Shown piece after piece: positions 4,378 through 63,714 of a stretch of 64,000 bases of DNA. The notes under the pieces were generated by a model. It saw only the letters and a program-made list of their open reading frames with translations. It had not been told where the DNA came from and searched no databases. The stretch is from a virus, in IMG/VR virus record IMGVR_UViG_3300031951_000126, positions 2,430 through 66,429 of that record. The stretch is one strand, 5' to 3'. A program made the translations under genes and the position numbers. Numbering within the stretch: the first letter of the stretch is position 1; each line of letters begins with the position of its first letter.

Positions 4378-4582
4378 ATGTCGAATAAATGATTTTTTTA
4401 GTTCCAAAATATGAATTGTGTTTTTGGGGTTATGTCTCCCATTATGATCAATGTCGCTGGGACGCAAATATACATCGTTTTATTTTCTCCATTTTCAACC
4501 CAGGTAAACCGCTCGAATATCCGTGACTCAATGATTGACATTATGGGGTGATTTTAATTTATCTTTGCTAAAACTAGTGGCT

Positions 4583-38366: not shown

Positions 38367-38858
38367 ATGAAACCTCATAGCTTAGACAAAGGTGTAGTAG
38401 ACCTATTAGCGCCACGTCATCTTGACGAGATGGACGCATTTTATTTCTATCGTGCCGCCAGCAACTGGTGTCAGGGTGTTGGATACTTCAAGGCTGCTGA
38501 ATTCTTCGCTGCCGAGTCTCAAGACGAACTCGAACACGCTGGCAAGATTGAGAAGTACTTGGTAGACTGGAACATCACAGTTTCGCTCCCAAGCGTAGCC
38601 AAGCCACAGGTAGAGTTCTCTGGACTTTTGGAAATTCTGGAAGAGGCTTACAAGATCGAGTACGATCTATACGAAGCATACGAAGAAACATCAAAGAAAC
38701 TTTTCAACATGGACCTTTGCACGTTTGACTTCTTGCAGCAGTTCCGTCTTATCCAGACCAAGTCTGTGGCGGAATACAGCGACAAGCTGAACCTGCTTGA
38801 AGACGTAGATGGCAAGGATAAATTCAAGTTGTTACTTCTCGAAGAAAAACTGTTCTAA
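38367..38858 (+). CDS. ftnA: ferritin (non-haem, FtnA-like)
   Basis: EMDAFYFYRAASNWC...FF..ESQDELEHA.KI..YL; E..E and Q...E ferroxidase residues. Confidence 0.9.
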   Translation: MKPHSLDKGVVDLLAPRHLDEMDAFYFYRAASNWCQGVGYFKAAEFFAAESQDELEHAGKIEKYLVDWNITVSLPSVAKPQVEFSGLLEILEEAYKIEYDLYEAYEETSKKLFNMDLCTFDFLQQFRLIQTKSVAEYSDKLNLLEDVDGKDKFKLLLLEEKLF

Positions 38859-41800
38859 TGGCAGCACCCTGTAAGGTAACCATAAAAACATCCCCAAATG
38901 CAGCTCCCAAGGAAATGTCCTATGAGGAGTACATGGAGATGCTCTATAACGGAGGGCTGGAGCAGTTCATTAAAGATGGATTTGTAAGCGTAGACGGCCT
39001 TAAAGGAGATAGTCCATTCGAGGCTAAGACGCCACCAAAGGCTGGGCCTACCAAGAGACGTGGTTTTGTCAAGTCTGTAGAAGACAACGACGACATCCCG
39101 GACAACGTGAAGGCTGCCTTCTCCGAGGATCGTGTGAATTACGAAGTTCTTCCTAATGATTTATCGGTATCTGCTGCCAACGGAATTATAGATTCGGTTG
39201 GAATAGATGAGGCAGAGAAGATTGCCCTTACAGGAAGTAAAAATATGCCCACGGCATTTAGAGTGGCACTTGCTCAGGTATTGATTAAGCGATTCTCAGC
39301 AAGCGGTGAAACCCAACGTGCGGTTGAGCTTGTAGAGAGTATTGCTGAATTGGCAACTGACTTTGGTCAGGCCATTCAAGCATTATCGTTGTTTGCTCGC
39401 CTAACCCCAGAAGGGGCGGTGCTTGCGGTTACTCGTCAGATTAAGAAGTCTCGCGAGAAACAGCTGGCTAAATACAAGTCAAATGTCAAGAAGATTCAAA
39501 AGGAATTAAACGACATCAATAAAGATGCGGCTAAACAGGTTGCTAATATTGTAGAAAAGGATGTAGAGAAGACTACAACCACGGTTCGTATGCCTAAGCG
39601 CCCTGCTGCGTATGGGGCCAAGAACAAAATCGTAAGCAAGGAGCGTTACGAAAAGGCTAGACAAAGCCTAAAGGGAAAAATGTTTAGTGCTGTGGCTCCT
39701 CCGCCCGAACTGGTTGAGGTGGCGATGTTCCACATTGAGGCTGGAGCTAGAAACTTTGCAGACTTTGCACAGCGCATGGCTGAAGACTTTGGTGACAAAG
39801 TTTCTGAGTACTTACAGTCTAGTTATGATGCGGCTACCGATCGTTTGAACGCGGAGGCTGCACAGAAAGAGATTGACAAGAATGTAAAGAAGTTTGGGAC
39901 TATGATGTCCCAGCAGCTTCCCAAGCAACCAGACAGAAGATCTAAGATAGAGAAGTTGCAAGAAATGGCTGACGCCATCGATGCGGCTACCGGTAATGAT
40001 GCGTTCAATCAAATCCTAAATGACTACAAAGCGATTCTGGCCCAGGAGCAGCTTGACAAAGATGCTGTAAAGGCCCAGAAGAAACTTGACAAGCTGGTGG
40101 CTTACATGGCTACCGAGGCCGGAGTTAAGAAGGGCTTGAAGGAAATGAACGTGAAGATTAGTGACTTGATCAAAAAGCACTATTCCGAAGTTGAAGCTAC
40201 CAAGCAAGATCTGGTAGATAAGTTTGTTAACGAGGCTGGTTTGACTGGGGCGGAGGCTGATGCCCTTGCCGATAAGGTGCAAGCAGAATTTGAAAAGATC
40301 GTAAAGGAAAGAAAGGAAAGTGCCATAAAAAGATATATGCCACGCAAGGGCGAACCTTCCAAGAAGAAGGAAGCCTTTGAGAAGTTGGTTGAAGCATCTA
40401 ACCTTGGTGCGGTAACCGAGGCTATGGTTAATGACGCCCTTGCTGAGTCACTGGGTATCGAAGGATTGTCCGCTGATGATGCTAAGAATATACAAGACTT
40501 GGCCAACAAGGTGCAGGAAGCCGAGACAGAGCGTGAGGAGTTGAGGGCAGTTCAGGATCTTTTGACCTACCAGGAGAACATGAAGGGCTTCTCATGGTTT
40601 GACGCAACTCAGGCTGTATGGATGGCAAGCATCCTTTCTGGTTGGAAGACTCAGACTATTAACGCGATAGCAAACTTGTACAATACAGGAGCGCTATTCA
40701 TAACTGCTTCTGCTCAAAAGAACACAAGCCGCAGAATGCTTGCAAAAGGTCTGGCAGTTGGTTGGAAGAGGGGATTCTTCGAAGGATTGGATACCTTGAA
40801 AACAGGATACAGTCCTATTCGCGATAAGTCTGAAACGCCTACCATTCTTGAAAGAACTAAGTTCAAGGGCGGTAAATTCAACCCACTTAACTACGCGAAA
40901 TACGTTCGTCGTCTTATGACCGCTGTAGACGTTGTGGCCTTTGAGGGTCTTCGTCAAATGCGATCATTCCAAATGGCTTACAAGAAGGCTGCTGCTGAGA
41001 ACGAGGGGATGTCTCGAAAGGATTTGCGTGACAAGACTCTTGAGATATTGAATCGTAATGATGAGACTTTGAATAATGCAATTGCTCAGGCAGAAAAAGA
41101 ACGTAAGGATAAAGAAACTCAACTTAATCAACAGCTTGCCAATGGTGAAATAACCAAAGAAGAGTTCAAAAAACAGATGGACTTTGCTCGTACAGATGAG
41201 CGTTTCCGAATCCACGAACTTCTTGAAGAGGGTCGTCCGGAAGAAATCATGCAGGAGGCTAAAGACTATGCTGCAAGGGGAACATTCAACTACCAGCCAA
41301 CTGGACTGCTTGGAATGCTTTCCACTTACATGAACTCTGCTTCCAGAGATTTTCCACCGCTTAAATTTGTGATCCCATTCGTTAACGTAATTTCTAACGT
41401 GGCTAACGAGACGCTGAATTACACGCCAGTTGGATTTGTTAGAGGGGCTAGAGAGGGAGGTACTATTACCGGTCTCAAACCTCAAAGGGACTGGAACGCT
41501 CAGCACAGGACCGAGCTTATGATCAAAGCCACCATGGGTACAGCTTTGATGGCTACGGTTTATCTATTGACCAAATTAAATGACGATGATGACGAGCCGA
41601 TTCTGGAGATTACCACCAACGGATTTGGTGAGTACAAAAAGAATAAGGAGCTTGCAGAAACAGGTTGGCAGCAGTATTCATTGCGTATTAAGAATCCAAT
41701 AACCGGCGAGTACTCTGCTTGGATGTCGTACAAGACAACTCCATTCATGGTTGGCCTTTCTTACATCGGGGCATTGAATGATGCTGAGAAGTATAGAGGA

Positions 41801-42523
41801 GAGGACATATCCGAGAACGGATACGCTAAGGCCGGTTTTGCTACGACAGCTCTCATGAGGTCATTCCTTGACCAAACATTCTTATCAAGCGGCGAGGATT
41901 TCTTGTCGGCCATGTTTGATGAGAAGGATGAGAACTTACTTGATAACGTGGGAGAATCACTCAAGAAAACAGCTGGAGCTATTCTTCTTCCAAACATCTA
42001 CACTCAGACCGCTCAGAAGATTTCTGAAATCATGGAGATCCCACAGAAGGATATCAAGGAAACATACCTAGGTCGTATGCTACGTGATGTTCCTGTTGCA
42101 AGGGATAAGTACAACAACATGATTAATGCCTTAGGTGATGAGGTTACTTACGATACCGACTTAATGTTCAGCACCGAAAAAGGTAAGCCAGAAGATAAAC
42201 TTTGGAAACTTGTCATCGATAAGAAGCAGACCATCGGTACTGCTACAGCTCCTGAAACTTATGTAGACAAGAGTGGGAAAGAAGTTCAAGTAACTGATGA
42301 TCAAGCGTATCAATTTACGAAGATCCGTGGTGGCTATATCAAGAAGTCTTTGGAAAAGAATTACGATAAGCTCGCCAAAATGGATAATAAAGACTTTGCT
42401 GAGTATCTCAAGAATGTAAAATCAAAGGCAACCAATTTTGCAAAGGCTTCTTTTAGTGCAGACAAAGCACAGCTAGAAAAATTCATGGAAGATTATGTAA
42501 AAAAACCACTGGACGAACAATAG
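38858..42523 (+). CDS. large helical polyvalent/ejection protein (1221 aa)
   Basis: MAAPC start, GQAIQALS, SILSG.KT, VIPFVNVISN motifs typical of large polyvalent proteins. Confidence 0.7.
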   Translation: MAAPCKVTIKTSPNAAPKEMSYEEYMEMLYNGGLEQFIKDGFVSVDGLKGDSPFEAKTPPKAGPTKRRGFVKSVEDNDDIPDNVKAAFSEDRVNYEVLPNDLSVSAANGIIDSVGIDEAEKIALTGSKNMPTAFRVALAQVLIKRFSASGETQRAVELVESIAELATDFGQAIQALSLFARLTPEGAVLAVTRQIKKSREKQLAKYKSNVKKIQKELNDINKDAAKQVANIVEKDVEKTTTTVRMPKRPAAYGAKNKIVSKERYEKARQSLKGKMFSAVAPPPELVEVAMFHIEAGARNFADFAQRMAEDFGDKVSEYLQSSYDAATDRLNAEAAQKEIDKNVKKFGTMMSQQLPKQPDRRSKIEKLQEMADAIDAATGNDAFNQILNDYKAILAQEQLDKDAVKAQKKLDKLVAYMATEAGVKKGLKEMNVKISDLIKKHYSEVEATKQDLVDKFVNEAGLTGAEADALADKVQAEFEKIVKERKESAIKRYMPRKGEPSKKKEAFEKLVEASNLGAVTEAMVNDALAESLGIEGLSADDAKNIQDLANKVQEAETEREELRAVQDLLTYQENMKGFSWFDATQAVWMASILSGWKTQTINAIANLYNTGALFITASAQKNTSRRMLAKGLAVGWKRGFFEGLDTLKTGYSPIRDKSETPTILERTKFKGGKFNPLNYAKYVRRLMTAVDVVAFEGLRQMRSFQMAYKKAAAENEGMSRKDLRDKTLEILNRNDETLNNAIAQAEKERKDKETQLNQQLANGEITKEEFKKQMDFARTDERFRIHELLEEGRPEEIMQEAKDYAARGTFNYQPTGLLGMLSTYMNSASRDFPPLKFVIPFVNVISNVANETLNYTPVGFVRGAREGGTITGLKPQRDWNAQHRTELMIKATMGTALMATVYLLTKLNDDDDEPILEITTNGFGEYKKNKELAETGWQQYSLRIKNPITGEYSAWMSYKTTPFMVGLSYIGALNDAEKYRGEDISENGYAKAGFATTALMRSFLDQTFLSSGEDFLSAMFDEKDENLLDNVGESLKKTAGAILLPNIYTQTAQKISEIMEIPQKDIKETYLGRMLRDVPVARDKYNNMINALGDEVTYDTDLMFSTEKGKPEDKLWKLVIDKKQTIGTATAPETYVDKSGKEVQVTDDQAYQFTKIRGGYIKKSLEKNYDKLAKMDNKDFAEYLKNVKSKATNFAKASFSADKAQLEKFMEDYVKKPLDEQ

Positions 42524-57467: not shown

Positions 57468-57515
57468 TTAGATTGCAAATATAGTGTAACTTCTAGGTTC
57501 TCAACTAAATTCAAA

Positions 57516-59690: not shown

Positions 59691-59756
59691 GTTGCTGTTG
59701 TTTTAAGTGGTACAAAAGTATATTAAAGTTTAAATTACACTTGTTAAGAAATGTTA

Positions 59757-59827
59757 ACTCACAGGTAGGGAGGGTGCGAGCCGTTGCCGCTCCCCTCCCC
59801 TCGTTGCATTACGAGCCTGCTGTGAGC
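59757..59827 (-). ncRNA. GC-rich three-way-junction RNA element
   Basis: GCTCACAG/CTGTGAGT closing CTCGT/ACGAG and GGGAGGG/CCCTCCC helices. Confidence 0.5.
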
Positions 59828-59831
59828 AGAG

Positions 59832-59876
59832 AACATGGCAGGGGATTCGAACCCCCGCTTGCTCCATAGCCATGTT
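59832..59876 (-). ncRNA. minimal tRNA-like element C (acceptor stem + T-arm, no anticodon)
   Basis: AACATGGC-TATGGAGCAAGC-GGGGG-TTCGAAT-CCCCT-GCCATGTT. Confidence 0.7.
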
Positions 59877-60545: not shown

Positions 60546-60692
60546 TTAAAATGAATTGAGGTGTTCGATTTCGTCGTCGGCTAGGTAGATGATAAGCCCG
60601 TTGCCTAGCTTAATCCAATTCTCGCCTGTGCTTTCGATTGTGAGTCCTACCAACATATCGTTGGCCTGCTCGTTGAGTTTCTGGGTTGTCAT
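60546..60692 (-). CDS. 48-aa early protein (not in ORF track)
   Basis: MTTQKLNEQANDMLVGLTIESTGENWIKLGNGLIIYLADDEIEHLNSF*. Confidence 0.65.
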   Translation of the reverse strand: MTTQKLNEQANDMLVGLTIESTGENWIKLGNGLIIYLADDEIEHLNSF

Positions 60693-60706
60693 GTTATTGT
60701 GTTATT

Positions 60707-60761
60707 GGTAAAGACCACAGGAGACCTGTGGTTTCGGCTATTGAAGCCTCATCAGTTTACC
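60707..60761 (-). ncRNA. hammerhead ribozyme (type I)
   Basis: GGUAAA-CUGAUGA-GGCU(UCAAU)AGCC-GAAA-CCACAGG(UCU)CCUGUGG-UC-UUUACC; complete catalytic core, GUC site. Confidence 0.95.
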
Positions 60762-61094
60762 TTATAGCTCCTGCATGAGCAAGGCGTAGCCAACCTTTGC
60801 CCTTTCCTGCTCGACCTCGCGTGACTTGTTCCTAGCCCAACTGCGGTCTCTAATCCACCATTGGACTAATTCCCTGTTGTCGTCGCTGTTGCTTGCGCCC
60901 CACGTCATAACGTAAGCCCCGTGGAAAGATACCCGCAGGGTCATTTGCAGTGGCATAGCGTCGTCCTTCAGGAGCATCTCGCTTATCTCGACGCGGTAGG
61001 TTATCTCTAGGCCATTGGCCATGTAGATGGTGTCGTTCTCATACTTTGCGACCTGCATTGCGGTCAGTTGCTTAATGAATTCTTGTGTTGTCAT
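60762..61094 (-). CDS. early hypothetical protein
   Basis: 110-aa ORF; stop codon abuts the ribozyme. Confidence 0.7.
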   Translation of the reverse strand: MTTQEFIKQLTAMQVAKYENDTIYMANGLEITYRVEISEMLLKDDAMPLQMTLRVSFHGAYVMTWGASNSDDNRELVQWWIRDRSWARNKSREVEQERAKVGYALLMQEL

Positions 61095-62088: not shown

Positions 62089-62376
62089 TTATTGGGCGCA
62101 TAGCGACCATGATTCATATTGTTTCATTGTACGTCCGTTGATGTCTAGCGTAGAGCAGATGAACTTGGCTAGCTTGATTCGGTCTGACTTGGTGTACAAC
62201 CTGTCAGTGCCGATAGCCAATACAACCTCGCGAGGACTCATGCCTAGCACTCGGTAGCAGAACTTAACGTCCTGCCCTAGGAAGAAGTGCTTGGTTGCCT
62301 TGGGTGTTGAACACACTAGCGTCCAATTGTGTTCGAACCCGTAGTTCGATGATGTGATTTCGATTGTTGCTTTCAT
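62089..62376 (-). CDS. early hypothetical protein
   Basis: FFLGQDVKFCYRVLG motif. Confidence 0.7.
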   Translation of the reverse strand: MKATIEITSSNYGFEHNWTLVCSTPKATKHFFLGQDVKFCYRVLGMSPREVVLAIGTDRLYTKSDRIKLAKFICSTLDINGRTMKQYESWSLCAQ

Positions 62377-62778: not shown

Positions 62779-62940
62779 TTACTTGGAATTATGAATTTGC
62801 ACGAATAGGTTCAGGCTCAGGTTCAGGCACAGGATAGTCAGCGGCAGTAAGAACCAAATGCCGGCCATTGGCGCAACTATCGAGGTCAGGAAGAAGAACA
62901 GCACCATTGCGAATGATGCGAGGGATTGGAGTGTTTTCAT
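62779..62940 (-). CDS. 53-aa two-TM protein (not in ORF track)
   Basis: MKTLQSLASFAMVLFFFLTSIVAPMAGIWFLLPLTILCLNLSLNLFVQIHNSK*; exactly fills the gap. Confidence 0.65.
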   Translation of the reverse strand: MKTLQSLASFAMVLFFFLTSIVAPMAGIWFLLPLTILCLNLSLNLFVQIHNSK

Positions 62941-63119
62941 TCTTCTCTATCTTTATTAAGTTTGATACGAACGTCGGGTGTGATTTCATTTCGAAGGAAG
63001 TGGAGGAATGCATCCACATATCGCCAATCAATTGGCTCGTTGTTTCTTGCTTTCTTGAATAGCACCTCTTGGTACTGCTCGATGACCGTAGTCAGTTGTT
63101 CTCTCTTTGCTTTTGTCAT
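62937..63119 (-). CDS. early hypothetical protein
   Basis: Start reassigned to MTKAKREQ, downstream of tRNA-like element B. Confidence 0.65.
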   Translation of the reverse strand: MTKAKREQLTTVIEQYQEVLFKKARNNEPIDWRYVDAFLHFLRNEITPDVRIKLNKDREE

Positions 63120-63143
63120 AGCTGTTGATTTTTTAAGTGTTAG

Positions 63144-63187
63144 AAACAGGAGGGGGAATCGAACCCCCTCTTGCACCATGCCTGTTT
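63144..63187 (-). ncRNA. minimal tRNA-like element B
   Basis: AAACAGG-CATGGTGCAAG-AGGGGG-TTCGATT-CCCCCT-CCTGTTT. Confidence 0.7.
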
Positions 63188-63192
63188 ATCGG

Positions 63193-63600
63193 TTATCCGT
63201 ACACCACCTCCCCTAGGAAGACGGTCTGCAATATCACGTCCGCAGTCTCTGCGTCATCGTTCTCCTCAATCAGGTTGAGAAGGTGGCGAATCGGTGTCTC
63301 AGAAATCCTGTCGTACACGTCCTGTAGCTTGATGTCGTGTCTAGTTGCCTCGTTGTAATCCATCAGGAACAACCTGTGGCCATCGCGCAGAATCTGCATC
63401 AGCACGTCCTCATAGCAGATTGCCATTTCAGGAAATGCAGGAGCACCTTCTTTGCCCTGCTTTAGCTTGCTCTTGGCTTCGTCATAGTGCTTTTGGTTGT
63501 ATCGCAGTTCTAGGTCATAACCTGCGATGTAACCTAGTCCGTTGCACATTGCGCTGTGGAAGTGTTGTTGTGCTTCCTCGTTGGTGAAAATAATCTTCAT
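63193..63600 (-). CDS. conserved early phage protein
   Basis: C-terminal DAETADVILQTVFLGEVVYG signature; start MKIIFT. Confidence 0.75.
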   Translation of the reverse strand: MKIIFTNEEAQQHFHSAMCNGLGYIAGYDLELRYNQKHYDEAKSKLKQGKEGAPAFPEMAICYEDVLMQILRDGHRLFLMDYNEATRHDIKLQDVYDRISETPIRHLLNLIEENDDAETADVILQTVFLGEVVYG

Positions 63601-63624
63601 GGTTGTTGTGTTTTTAAGAGTTAG

Positions 63625-63698
63625 AACAACGGGGGGACTCGAACCCCCTGCGAGACTAGCGACCTCGGTCATCTAGGCTTGCCGCACCATGCGTCGTT
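63625..63698 (-). ncRNA. tRNA-like element A with inserted hairpin
   Basis: AACGACG-CATGGTGC...(CTAG..GACC-GA-GGTC.CTAG)...GCA-GGGGG-TTCGAGT-CCCCC-CGTTGTT. Confidence 0.65.
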
Positions 63699-63714
63699 GC
63701 TATAGTTGTATTGA

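Follow-up and report, generated by a model that had tools for sequence, protein, structure and literature searches.

Hammerhead ribozymes are known to flank genes of prophages, where, in the account of Perreault et al., they self-cleave in transcripts of about 2 kb both in vitro and in Escherichia coli, and the processing of polycistronic phage RNA was proposed as their role in 2011 (PMC3088659) and put forward again, as an idea needing work, in a 2019 review (PMC6765202). As summarized in that review, hammerhead cleavage leaves one end with a 2',3'-cyclic phosphate, the other with a 5'-hydroxyl (5'-OH), and glmS is the well-understood bacterial case of a ribozyme whose cleavage is linked to mRNA degradation (PMC6765202). 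Searches of the literature for functional studies of phage hammerheads turned up no phage work other than that cited here, which does not prove that none exists. In insulators of the RiboJ type, engineered from a satellite-RNA hammerhead with an added hairpin, a hammerhead placed just before a translation start strips off the RNA context upstream, and the leader that remains is short and defined. Here we analyze a complete type I hammerhead that lies between two small phage genes in a window of 64,000 nucleotides (nt), bases 2430-66429 of the 66,429-base pair (bp) IMG/VR virus record IMGVR_UViG_3300031951_000126, which has direct terminal repeats and is rated complete. The element joins the class of intergenic phage hammerheads for which a part in mRNA processing has been in print since 2011.

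The hammerhead occupies positions 60707-60761 of the minus strand (Table 1), where a sequence-only reading of the window had called a perfect ribozyme that begins right after the stop codon of the open reading frame (ORF) 60762-61094 and whose predicted cut leaves a 20-nt leader. Reading this strand, we find the positions proposed for the stems, the core and the GUC right to the base: the TAA is 60764-60762 and the ribozyme begins at the following base, the predicted cut at 60713/60712 fits the GUC triplet of the consensus, and the leader to the ATG at 60692 comprises 60712-60693. Core positions C3-U4-G5-A6-N7-G8-A9 and G12-A13-A14 all agree with the hammerhead consensus, stems I, II and III consist of 6, 4 and 8 bp, all of them Watson-Crick, and the A15.1-U16.1 pair and the N-U-H triplet GUC are present. 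Stem I is open and stems II and III are closed by loops, which is the type I topology. For the isolated 55-mer the minimum-energy fold and the centroid fold are both the hammerhead secondary structure, at -19.7 kcal/mol, with a folding z-score of -3.25; one of 200 shuffled sequences folds equally well.

Compared by the text of the 2011 paper, the hammerheads of Perreault et al. and the family to which the window copy belongs are alike in that they have a consensus core, lie between phage genes, often several per genome around single genes, and include natural core variants, whereas the paper stresses type II elements with pseudoknot contacts and the window copy is of type I with an open 6-bp stem I (PMC3088659). 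By reading the flanks of the window copy, we saw no pseudoknot partner for its loop II. The sequence-only reading had also proposed an Rfam search for hammerhead models, and this search did return a hammerhead family, RAGATH-1-hammerhead (RF03152), as the best match, but at 29.1 bits against a gathering score of 56.3, while Hammerhead_3 scored 13.7 bits against 48.5 (both in a permissive local scan); at the scale of the window RAGATH-1 has an E-value of 0.92, and no other family of any kind appears at E-values up to 1. Like the window copy, RAGATH-1 is of type I, with CUGAUGA and GAAAC boxes, a long stem III and a GUC, but it has a one-pair stem II and an upstream hairpin where the window copy has a stem II of 4 bp with a 5-nt loop. 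We rejected membership in RAGATH-1 on its score, on the upstream hairpin, which is weakly matched inside coding sequence, on the poor conservation of the 5' flank among the window copy's family, and on the 4-bp stem II. Unlike the engineered RiboJ, the window element is natural and lies between cistrons. As presented in the 2019 review, glmS is a self-cleaving ribozyme in a bacterial mRNA whose cut alters the fate of the downstream message, as the predicted cut of the window element may do; glmS lies in a 5' untranslated region, depends on a metabolite and directs the message to degradation (PMC6765202). The window element is intercistronic, and nothing suggests that it depends on a ligand.

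Identification of the element as a hammerhead is upheld, beyond its consensus core, perfect helices and minimum-energy fold, by a covariance model, R1, that we built from 30 equal-length hammerheads of other phages and from which the window copy was left out. With R1 the window element obtains 67.7 bits (E 2.5e-16), the runner-up in the window reaching 11.8 bits, and over the whole 66,429-bp genome 60707-60761 is the sole match, with no second copy. The window contains one match to the core pattern by itself, where chance would give 0.01, and together with the R1 score this excludes a chance origin. Other viral contigs were scanned with a pattern that fixed the core and the window's stem II and nothing else, which gave at least 125 core matches, the window's own included; 115 of the 125 have a full stem III, U16.1, a base other than G at position 17 and stem I, and several of the remaining ten are cut by a contig end or have bulged stems. 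These 115 complete sets of stems can be regarded as more independent support for the helices than the model-fitted alignment. Among the matches listed, stem I is exactly 6 bp long in 110 of the 115 complete hammerheads, and of the 97 non-identical copies 95 carry an A immediately 5' of stem I and 96 an A immediately 3' of it.

With R1 we collected 140 copies (133 distinct) across 100 sister loci totaling 883 kb, an alignment that excludes four close relatives of the window locus (L002, L246, L248 and L249). The 98 loci with matches carry one copy (71 loci), two (16), three (8), four (2) or five (1). Across the 133 distinct rows 99.4% of cells are paired, 14 of 16 pairs vary on both sides, and the covariation score is 0.710, compared to 0.135 for shuffled rows and at most 0.059 for slid partners. 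All six pairs of stem I covary, as do three of the four pairs of stem II, even though the scanning pattern had fixed stem II. The core box C3-A9 is invariant or nearly so except at position 7, and G12, A13 and A14 are invariant in 133 of 133 rows, figures that overstate core conservation, given an alignment fitted to the model and a majority of rows picked by the exact-core pattern. Outside the core, an A precedes stem I in 130 of the 133 rows and two A's follow it (129 and 104 rows), while loop II has U at its first position in 129 rows and A at its third in 122. A hairpin at about 60779-60766, upstream of the window copy, was considered as a part of the ribozyme and rejected; it is coding sequence, and the 5' flank of the family is not conserved past one A.

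The resulting subfamily is characterized by a stem I of 6 bp with a G-C pair and unpaired A's at its boundary, a 4-bp stem II and a 5-nt loop II of the form U-N-A-N-K, and the window copy has every one of its features, namely stem I, flanking A's, loop II and placement. Rapid hammerhead cleavage at physiological Mg2+ needs a tertiary contact between stem I and loop II, and the conservation of the unpaired A's at the end of stem I and of the U and A in loop II is what such a contact would predict; the A's at 60705-60706 are thus a candidate contact site for loop II. Two cultured phages carry members of the subfamily. In Flavobacterium phage vB_FspP_elemoA_7-9A (NC_055852.1; R1 52.6 bits) stem II reads GACU/AGUC, a compensatory change, and in Pelagibacter phage HTVC019P (NC_020483.1; R1 47.1 bits) position 7 is C and the cleavage triplet is GUA. 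Both share with the window copy the 6-bp stem I, the flanking A's and a place between small genes, have a UUAAU loop II, and are unannotated in their records. In NC_055852.1 gp68 (L125 1167-1274), a 35-amino acid (aa) 'hypothetical protein', runs antisense to the hammerhead at L125 1199-1262 and is probably a spurious gene call over the unannotated ribozyme.

Placement relative to genes is equally regular. Of 100 distinct members with enough flanking sequence, 85 follow an ORF (at least 40 codons) whose stop lies at the ribozyme's 5' edge, and in 77 an ORF of 30 codons or more begins 10-45 nt past the cut. Both hold for 64 of the 100, as opposed to 12 of 100 when the same places are read on the opposite strand and to 132 of 2000 random places. 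The family is a sense-strand intercistronic element. The leader from the cut to the start codon has a median length of 24 nt (quartiles 19 and 28), and that of the window copy is 20 nt. In 17 of the 100 copies, as in the window, the stop codon of the upstream ORF ends right before stem I; in 10 it shares one base with the stem, in 12 it makes up the final three bases of the stem I strand, and in 16 it is the first UGA of CUGAUGA. In the latter 16 and 12 members (sister loci L003-L122) upstream translation terminates at the core UGA or within the stem I strand, and with stop codons inside the ribozyme terminating ribosomes must cover part of it, so a link between upstream translation and ribozyme folding is possible. 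The type I topology dictates that nearly the whole ribozyme stays on the upstream product of cleavage and that six bases plus the leader start the downstream product. The 48-aa ORF downstream, which the sequence-only reading had added as an unannotated gene, is real: in five loci (L002, L037, L245, L247 and L250) the same upstream gene is followed by a homologue, similar in length and about 63-67% identical.

We interpret the element as a cis-acting type I hammerhead in a leftward polycistronic phage mRNA that cuts itself and uncouples two halves of an operon, an interpretation to which we assign a probability of roughly three in four. Once the 3' strand of stem I is transcribed, the RNA would fold and cut itself co-transcriptionally between C60713 and U60712. 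The upstream RNA, with the 110-aa gene and those preceding it, would keep stems II and III and end in a 2',3'-cyclic phosphate, and the downstream RNA, with the 48-aa gene and those following it, would start with a 5'-OH and the unstructured, A-rich 20-nt leader; the stability and translation of the two halves would then be free to differ. The analysis shows the motif, its family membership, the covariation and the sense-strand placement between cistrons; transcription of the minus strand at this site and cleavage are inferred from the sequence, and any effect on stability or translation could go in either direction. RNA-library runs that contain window sequence do so in at most 0.10 of words each, in assembled contigs, and in four of these runs the pieces are short and come mostly from hammerheads of other phages; one contig piece (X6 record 19) spans 60703-60842 with only 10 nt past the cut and is uninformative on cleavage or transcription.

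Several observations weigh against this interpretation. No promoter was identified upstream on this strand within the window: a sigma-70 promoter scan was uninformative, with 15 sites where 15.9 are expected, and the minus strand from 64000 to 59720 has no TAnnTTTG box, the -7 promoter consensus of Bacteroidota. When the hammerhead is folded in a 191-nt context, part of the core pairs with upstream coding sequence and displaces stem I, while stems II and III stay; this minimum-energy fold has an ensemble frequency of only 0.012, and the calculation does not account for folding during transcription, for tertiary contacts or for ribosomes that occupy the upstream ORF. No Rfam 15 family recognizes the window hammerhead at its gathering score. 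The gathering score is likewise reached in none of 20 sister loci of the family, so the shortfall reflects the coverage of the models rather than a defect of the window copy, and Rfam alone would not have found this ribozyme. Stabilization of the downstream RNA by its 5'-OH end would be reasonable for decay that is stimulated by a 5'-monophosphate, but the glmS precedent is the opposite. Finally, relatives have the same gene pair without a ribozyme (L247, L250), or with a C in place of U4 (L002/L248, L249, L246) or an extra U (L245).

These relatives form a series at one gene junction. In L245, whose upstream protein is 99% identical to the 110-aa protein of the window, the ribozyme has one additional U, between A9 and stem II, and its stem III is longer and contains two wobble pairs; both wobble positions are Watson-Crick in the window, so the changes in stem III preserve its structure. 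L002/L248 (one contig) and L249, at 81% identity, and L246, at 89% and cut by the contig end, have a ribozyme with C at core position 4. In L037 (34%) the ribozyme is intact and the upstream ORF stops at the UGA of the core, and in L247 and L250 (83% and 81%) the two genes are again neighbors, with no ribozyme between them but a 23-nt spacer that shares the 3' part of the leader. Since L247 and L250 keep the gene pair, the ribozyme is dispensable and evolutionarily labile at this junction, the window copy representing the flawless form. Changes at U4 strongly lower hammerhead activity in classical mutagenesis. Natural core variants of phage hammerheads are described as weakly active to inactive (PMC3088659).

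The same loci provide the case for the strongest competing explanation, that the hammerhead is real and probably competent for cleavage but a dispensable passenger, a cassette of ribozyme and leader that moves by recombination among mosaic phages and may itself be a recombination linker, and that contributes little or nothing adaptive to the genes at its sides. It would account for the clean insertion or deletion in relatives that keep both genes and for the core changes (U4-to-C in three distinct contigs, the extra U in one). Gene order around the hammerheads is mosaic across the relatives' loci, and the unit of ribozyme and leader seems to precede different genes in different phages, which is further evidence of the same kind: L013, which carries two hammerhead copies flanking other genes, one of them with an extra U, has the same ribozyme with a near-identical 23-nt leader before an unrelated 175-aa gene, and L073 has a variant ribozyme, also with a 23-nt leader, before an unrelated 83-aa gene. 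RNA-library contigs of runs X4 and X6, which derive from relatives, give another instance: here the hammerhead runs straight into the start of a homologue of another gene of the window, 62089-62376. Yet the strong constraint on the structure, the unpaired nucleotides and the stop and start placement argues for selection on function in the family generally, the window copy combines a flawless core with structure-preserving changes in stem III, and U4-to-C occurs in one of the 133 rows of the alignment (from which L002, L246, L248 and L249 were excluded), so that the variants look exceptional. We consider the passenger explanation unlikely, though the most serious of the alternatives.

Less probable still is that the element acts mainly as a folded RNA without cutting, as a 3'-end stabilizer, a pause or termination hairpin, or a translation barrier between the cistrons. 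Stems II and III persist in the 191-nt fold even without stem I, the relatives with U4-to-C retain perfect helices, and the upstream stop codon often abuts or overlaps the 5' side of the element in the arrangements counted above, all of which such a role would accommodate. A mere hairpin would not, however, require the catalytic unpaired nucleotides, which are near-invariant (a figure biased by the selection of rows), relatives in the published family do cleave (PMC3088659), and no U-tract follows the structure, the terminator scan of the window giving no site there. That the sequence resembles a hammerhead by chance, with no role at the RNA level, is effectively refuted, despite the missing Rfam family at gathering score and the best window-scale E-value of 0.92, by the R1 E-value, the covariation of the helices, the single core pattern against 0.01 expected, the same element at the same junction in relatives and the fit of family features outside the core (6-bp stem I, flanking A's, loop II consensus).

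Table 1. Coordinates of the hammerhead, its flanking genes and the tRNA-like elements in the 64,000-nt window
Feature	Position	Strand	Basis or remark
Complete type I hammerhead ribozyme, 55 nt	60707..60761	-	Minus-strand reading; folding; model R1
Unpaired conserved A immediately 5' of stem I	60762	-	Third letter of the TAA stop codon
Stem I, 5' strand GGUAAA	60756..60761 (60761-60756)	-	Perfect pairing with 60712-60707
Catalytic core box CUGAUGA (C3-A9)	60749..60755	-	Consensus match
Stem II hairpin GGCU/AGCC, 4 bp, 5-nt loop UCAAU	60736..60748	-	Reading and fold
Core G12 A13 A14 (GAA)	60733..60735	-	Reading
Stem III hairpin, A15.1-U16.1 plus 7 pairs, 3-nt loop UCU	60714..60732	-	Reading and fold
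C17	60713	-	Reading
Predicted cleavage site, C17 (60713) / U1.1 (60712)	60712..60713	-	GUC triplet of hammerhead consensus
Stem I, 3' strand UUUACC; predicted 5' end of downstream RNA	60707..60712	-	Reading and fold
Unpaired conserved AA immediately 3' of stem I	60705..60706	-	
A-rich 20-nt leader, cut to ATG 60692, no Shine-Dalgarno sequence	60693..60712	-	Minus-strand reading
Upstream gene P0001, 110 aa	60762..61094	-	No PHROG family; homologues of 32-99% identity in 8 other loci
Downstream gene P0002, 48 aa, ATG 60692	60546..60692	-	No PHROG family; conserved in L002, L037, L245, L247, L250
tRNA-like element, cloverleaf-like, 7-bp acceptor-like stem	63625-63701	-	Reading and folding
tRNA-like element, acceptor-like stem, 11-12-nt bulge, 7-bp T stem, no anticodon arm	63144-63187	-	Reading and folding
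tRNA-like element, acceptor-like stem, 11-12-nt bulge, 7-bp T stem, no anticodon arm	59832-59876	-	Reading and folding

Both flanking genes share the ribozyme's strand and belong to an array of small, closely spaced ORFs that points leftward, begins beside the right genome end and runs from 63672 to about 52343, and this position makes it plausible that they are early genes, as the sequence-only reading had called them. Nine of the ten genes around the site have no PHROG family and the tenth matches a family of unknown function; among the next ten, matches were obtained only for a Cas4-domain exonuclease, which lies further along the array, for a primase/helicase, a portal protein and a terminase, which lie elsewhere in the window, and for one protein of unknown function. 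PHROG detected no polymerase family among the giant proteins of the window, and early transcription by a virion RNA polymerase is therefore not supported. Of these large proteins, a 1221-aa protein (38858-42523, plus strand) has a DarB-like antirestriction segment at residues 176-337 (E 2.4e-17), and its neighbors of 2255 and 1799 aa have no PHROG family. No other ribozyme class and no tRNA was found in the window with Rfam and ARAGORN, and the 2 kb surrounding the site had no match when compared at the nucleotide level with 50,697 phage records.

The host of the phage is probably a member of the Bacteroidota. The terminase matches 87 phage records at about 24% identity, 86 of them from phages of Flavobacteriia and the 87th a Caudoviricetes record; TAnnTTTG boxes stand shortly before many starts, for example at 4560, 14247, 42532 and 43016 on the plus strand and at 57483, 54521, 6549 and 4039 on the minus strand; and the leaders are A-rich and devoid of Shine-Dalgarno sequences. 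It is the combination of terminase matches, promoter boxes and leaders without Shine-Dalgarno sequences that makes such a host likely.

The terminator scan of the window flagged three minus-strand hairpins of the same array that contain a canonical tRNA T arm with the loop UUCGANU (Table 1). ARAGORN called no tRNA in the window, and Rfam gave only insignificant, sub-threshold matches to these elements (mascRNA, tRNA-Sec and the T arm of tmRNA). They are kept with compensatory changes in relatives (L002, L013, L020, L037, L169 and others): in an alignment of 11 rows, selected for the acceptor-like stem and counted after three out-of-register MAFFT rows had been removed, pairing is intact in 97.3% of cells and covariation scores 0.653, compared to 0.142 for shuffled rows. 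The element at 63625-63701 lies ahead of the first ORF of the array and that at 63144-63187 in a gap between ORFs, and behind each come an A-rich leader of 24 nt and an ATG in frame (63600 and 63119, respectively). The longest-ORF starts at 63672 (ORF 63193-63672, minus strand) and 63179 (ORF 62937-63179, minus strand) fall within these two elements, and ATGs 63600 and 63119 are more likely to be the true starts. In the third element, 59832-59876, which also lies in a gap between ORFs, the first bases of the 5' strand are the stop codon of the upstream ORF. Directly after it comes a long, G+C-rich hairpin (59760-59825, minus strand), whose 5' part is conserved in L002, L013, L020 and L037, followed by a Bacteroidota-type TAnnTTTG box at 59720, about 20 nt before ATG 59690; this arrangement looks like an operon boundary, with a 3'-end module and then a promoter. 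A second T-arm element, with a 5-bp T stem, is highly conserved in about 30 loci (e.g. L130, L137 and L139), on contigs of about 55-59 kb, and is not called by ARAGORN either.

The closest analogues of the tRNA-like elements are the t-elements of plant mitochondria, for which a role as RNase P or RNase Z signals at mRNA ends has been proposed (PMC1920247), and by analogy the phage elements may be RNase P or RNase Z processing signals. Our literature searches on tRNA-like processing elements in phages found no phage report, which does not prove absence. Tentatively, the hammerhead and the tRNA-like elements might be two kinds of punctuation mark that cut the array into mRNAs of one or a few genes with short, defined, unstructured leaders. 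Self-cleavage at the hammerhead and host RNase P or RNase Z at the tRNA-like elements would then do the same job, a proposal that we consider less likely than not. At no junction in the window and the loci of eight relatives is a hammerhead replaced by a tRNA-like element, which leaves co-occurrence and similar geometry as the basis for regarding the two as equivalent. Bacteroidota initiate translation without Shine-Dalgarno pairing, and if the punctuation idea is true, short unstructured leaders could matter in such hosts and the phage would offer a counterpart of the plant-mitochondrial t-elements.

For annotation, the family exposes a gap, a subfamily of at least 140 copies in 100 viral loci that is invisible to Rfam at curated thresholds, and its fixed 6-bp stem I, conserved A's and loop II point to a tertiary contact that is structurally testable. 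Between the same two genes, relatives of this phage provide a natural allelic series of consensus core, extra U, U4-to-C and clean absence, and this series, together with the members in cultured Flavobacterium and Pelagibacter phages, makes the purpose of phage hammerheads directly testable. The tRNA-like elements may prove a more novel lead than the hammerhead itself, and the RNA punctuation of phage operons may extend beyond ribozymes alone.

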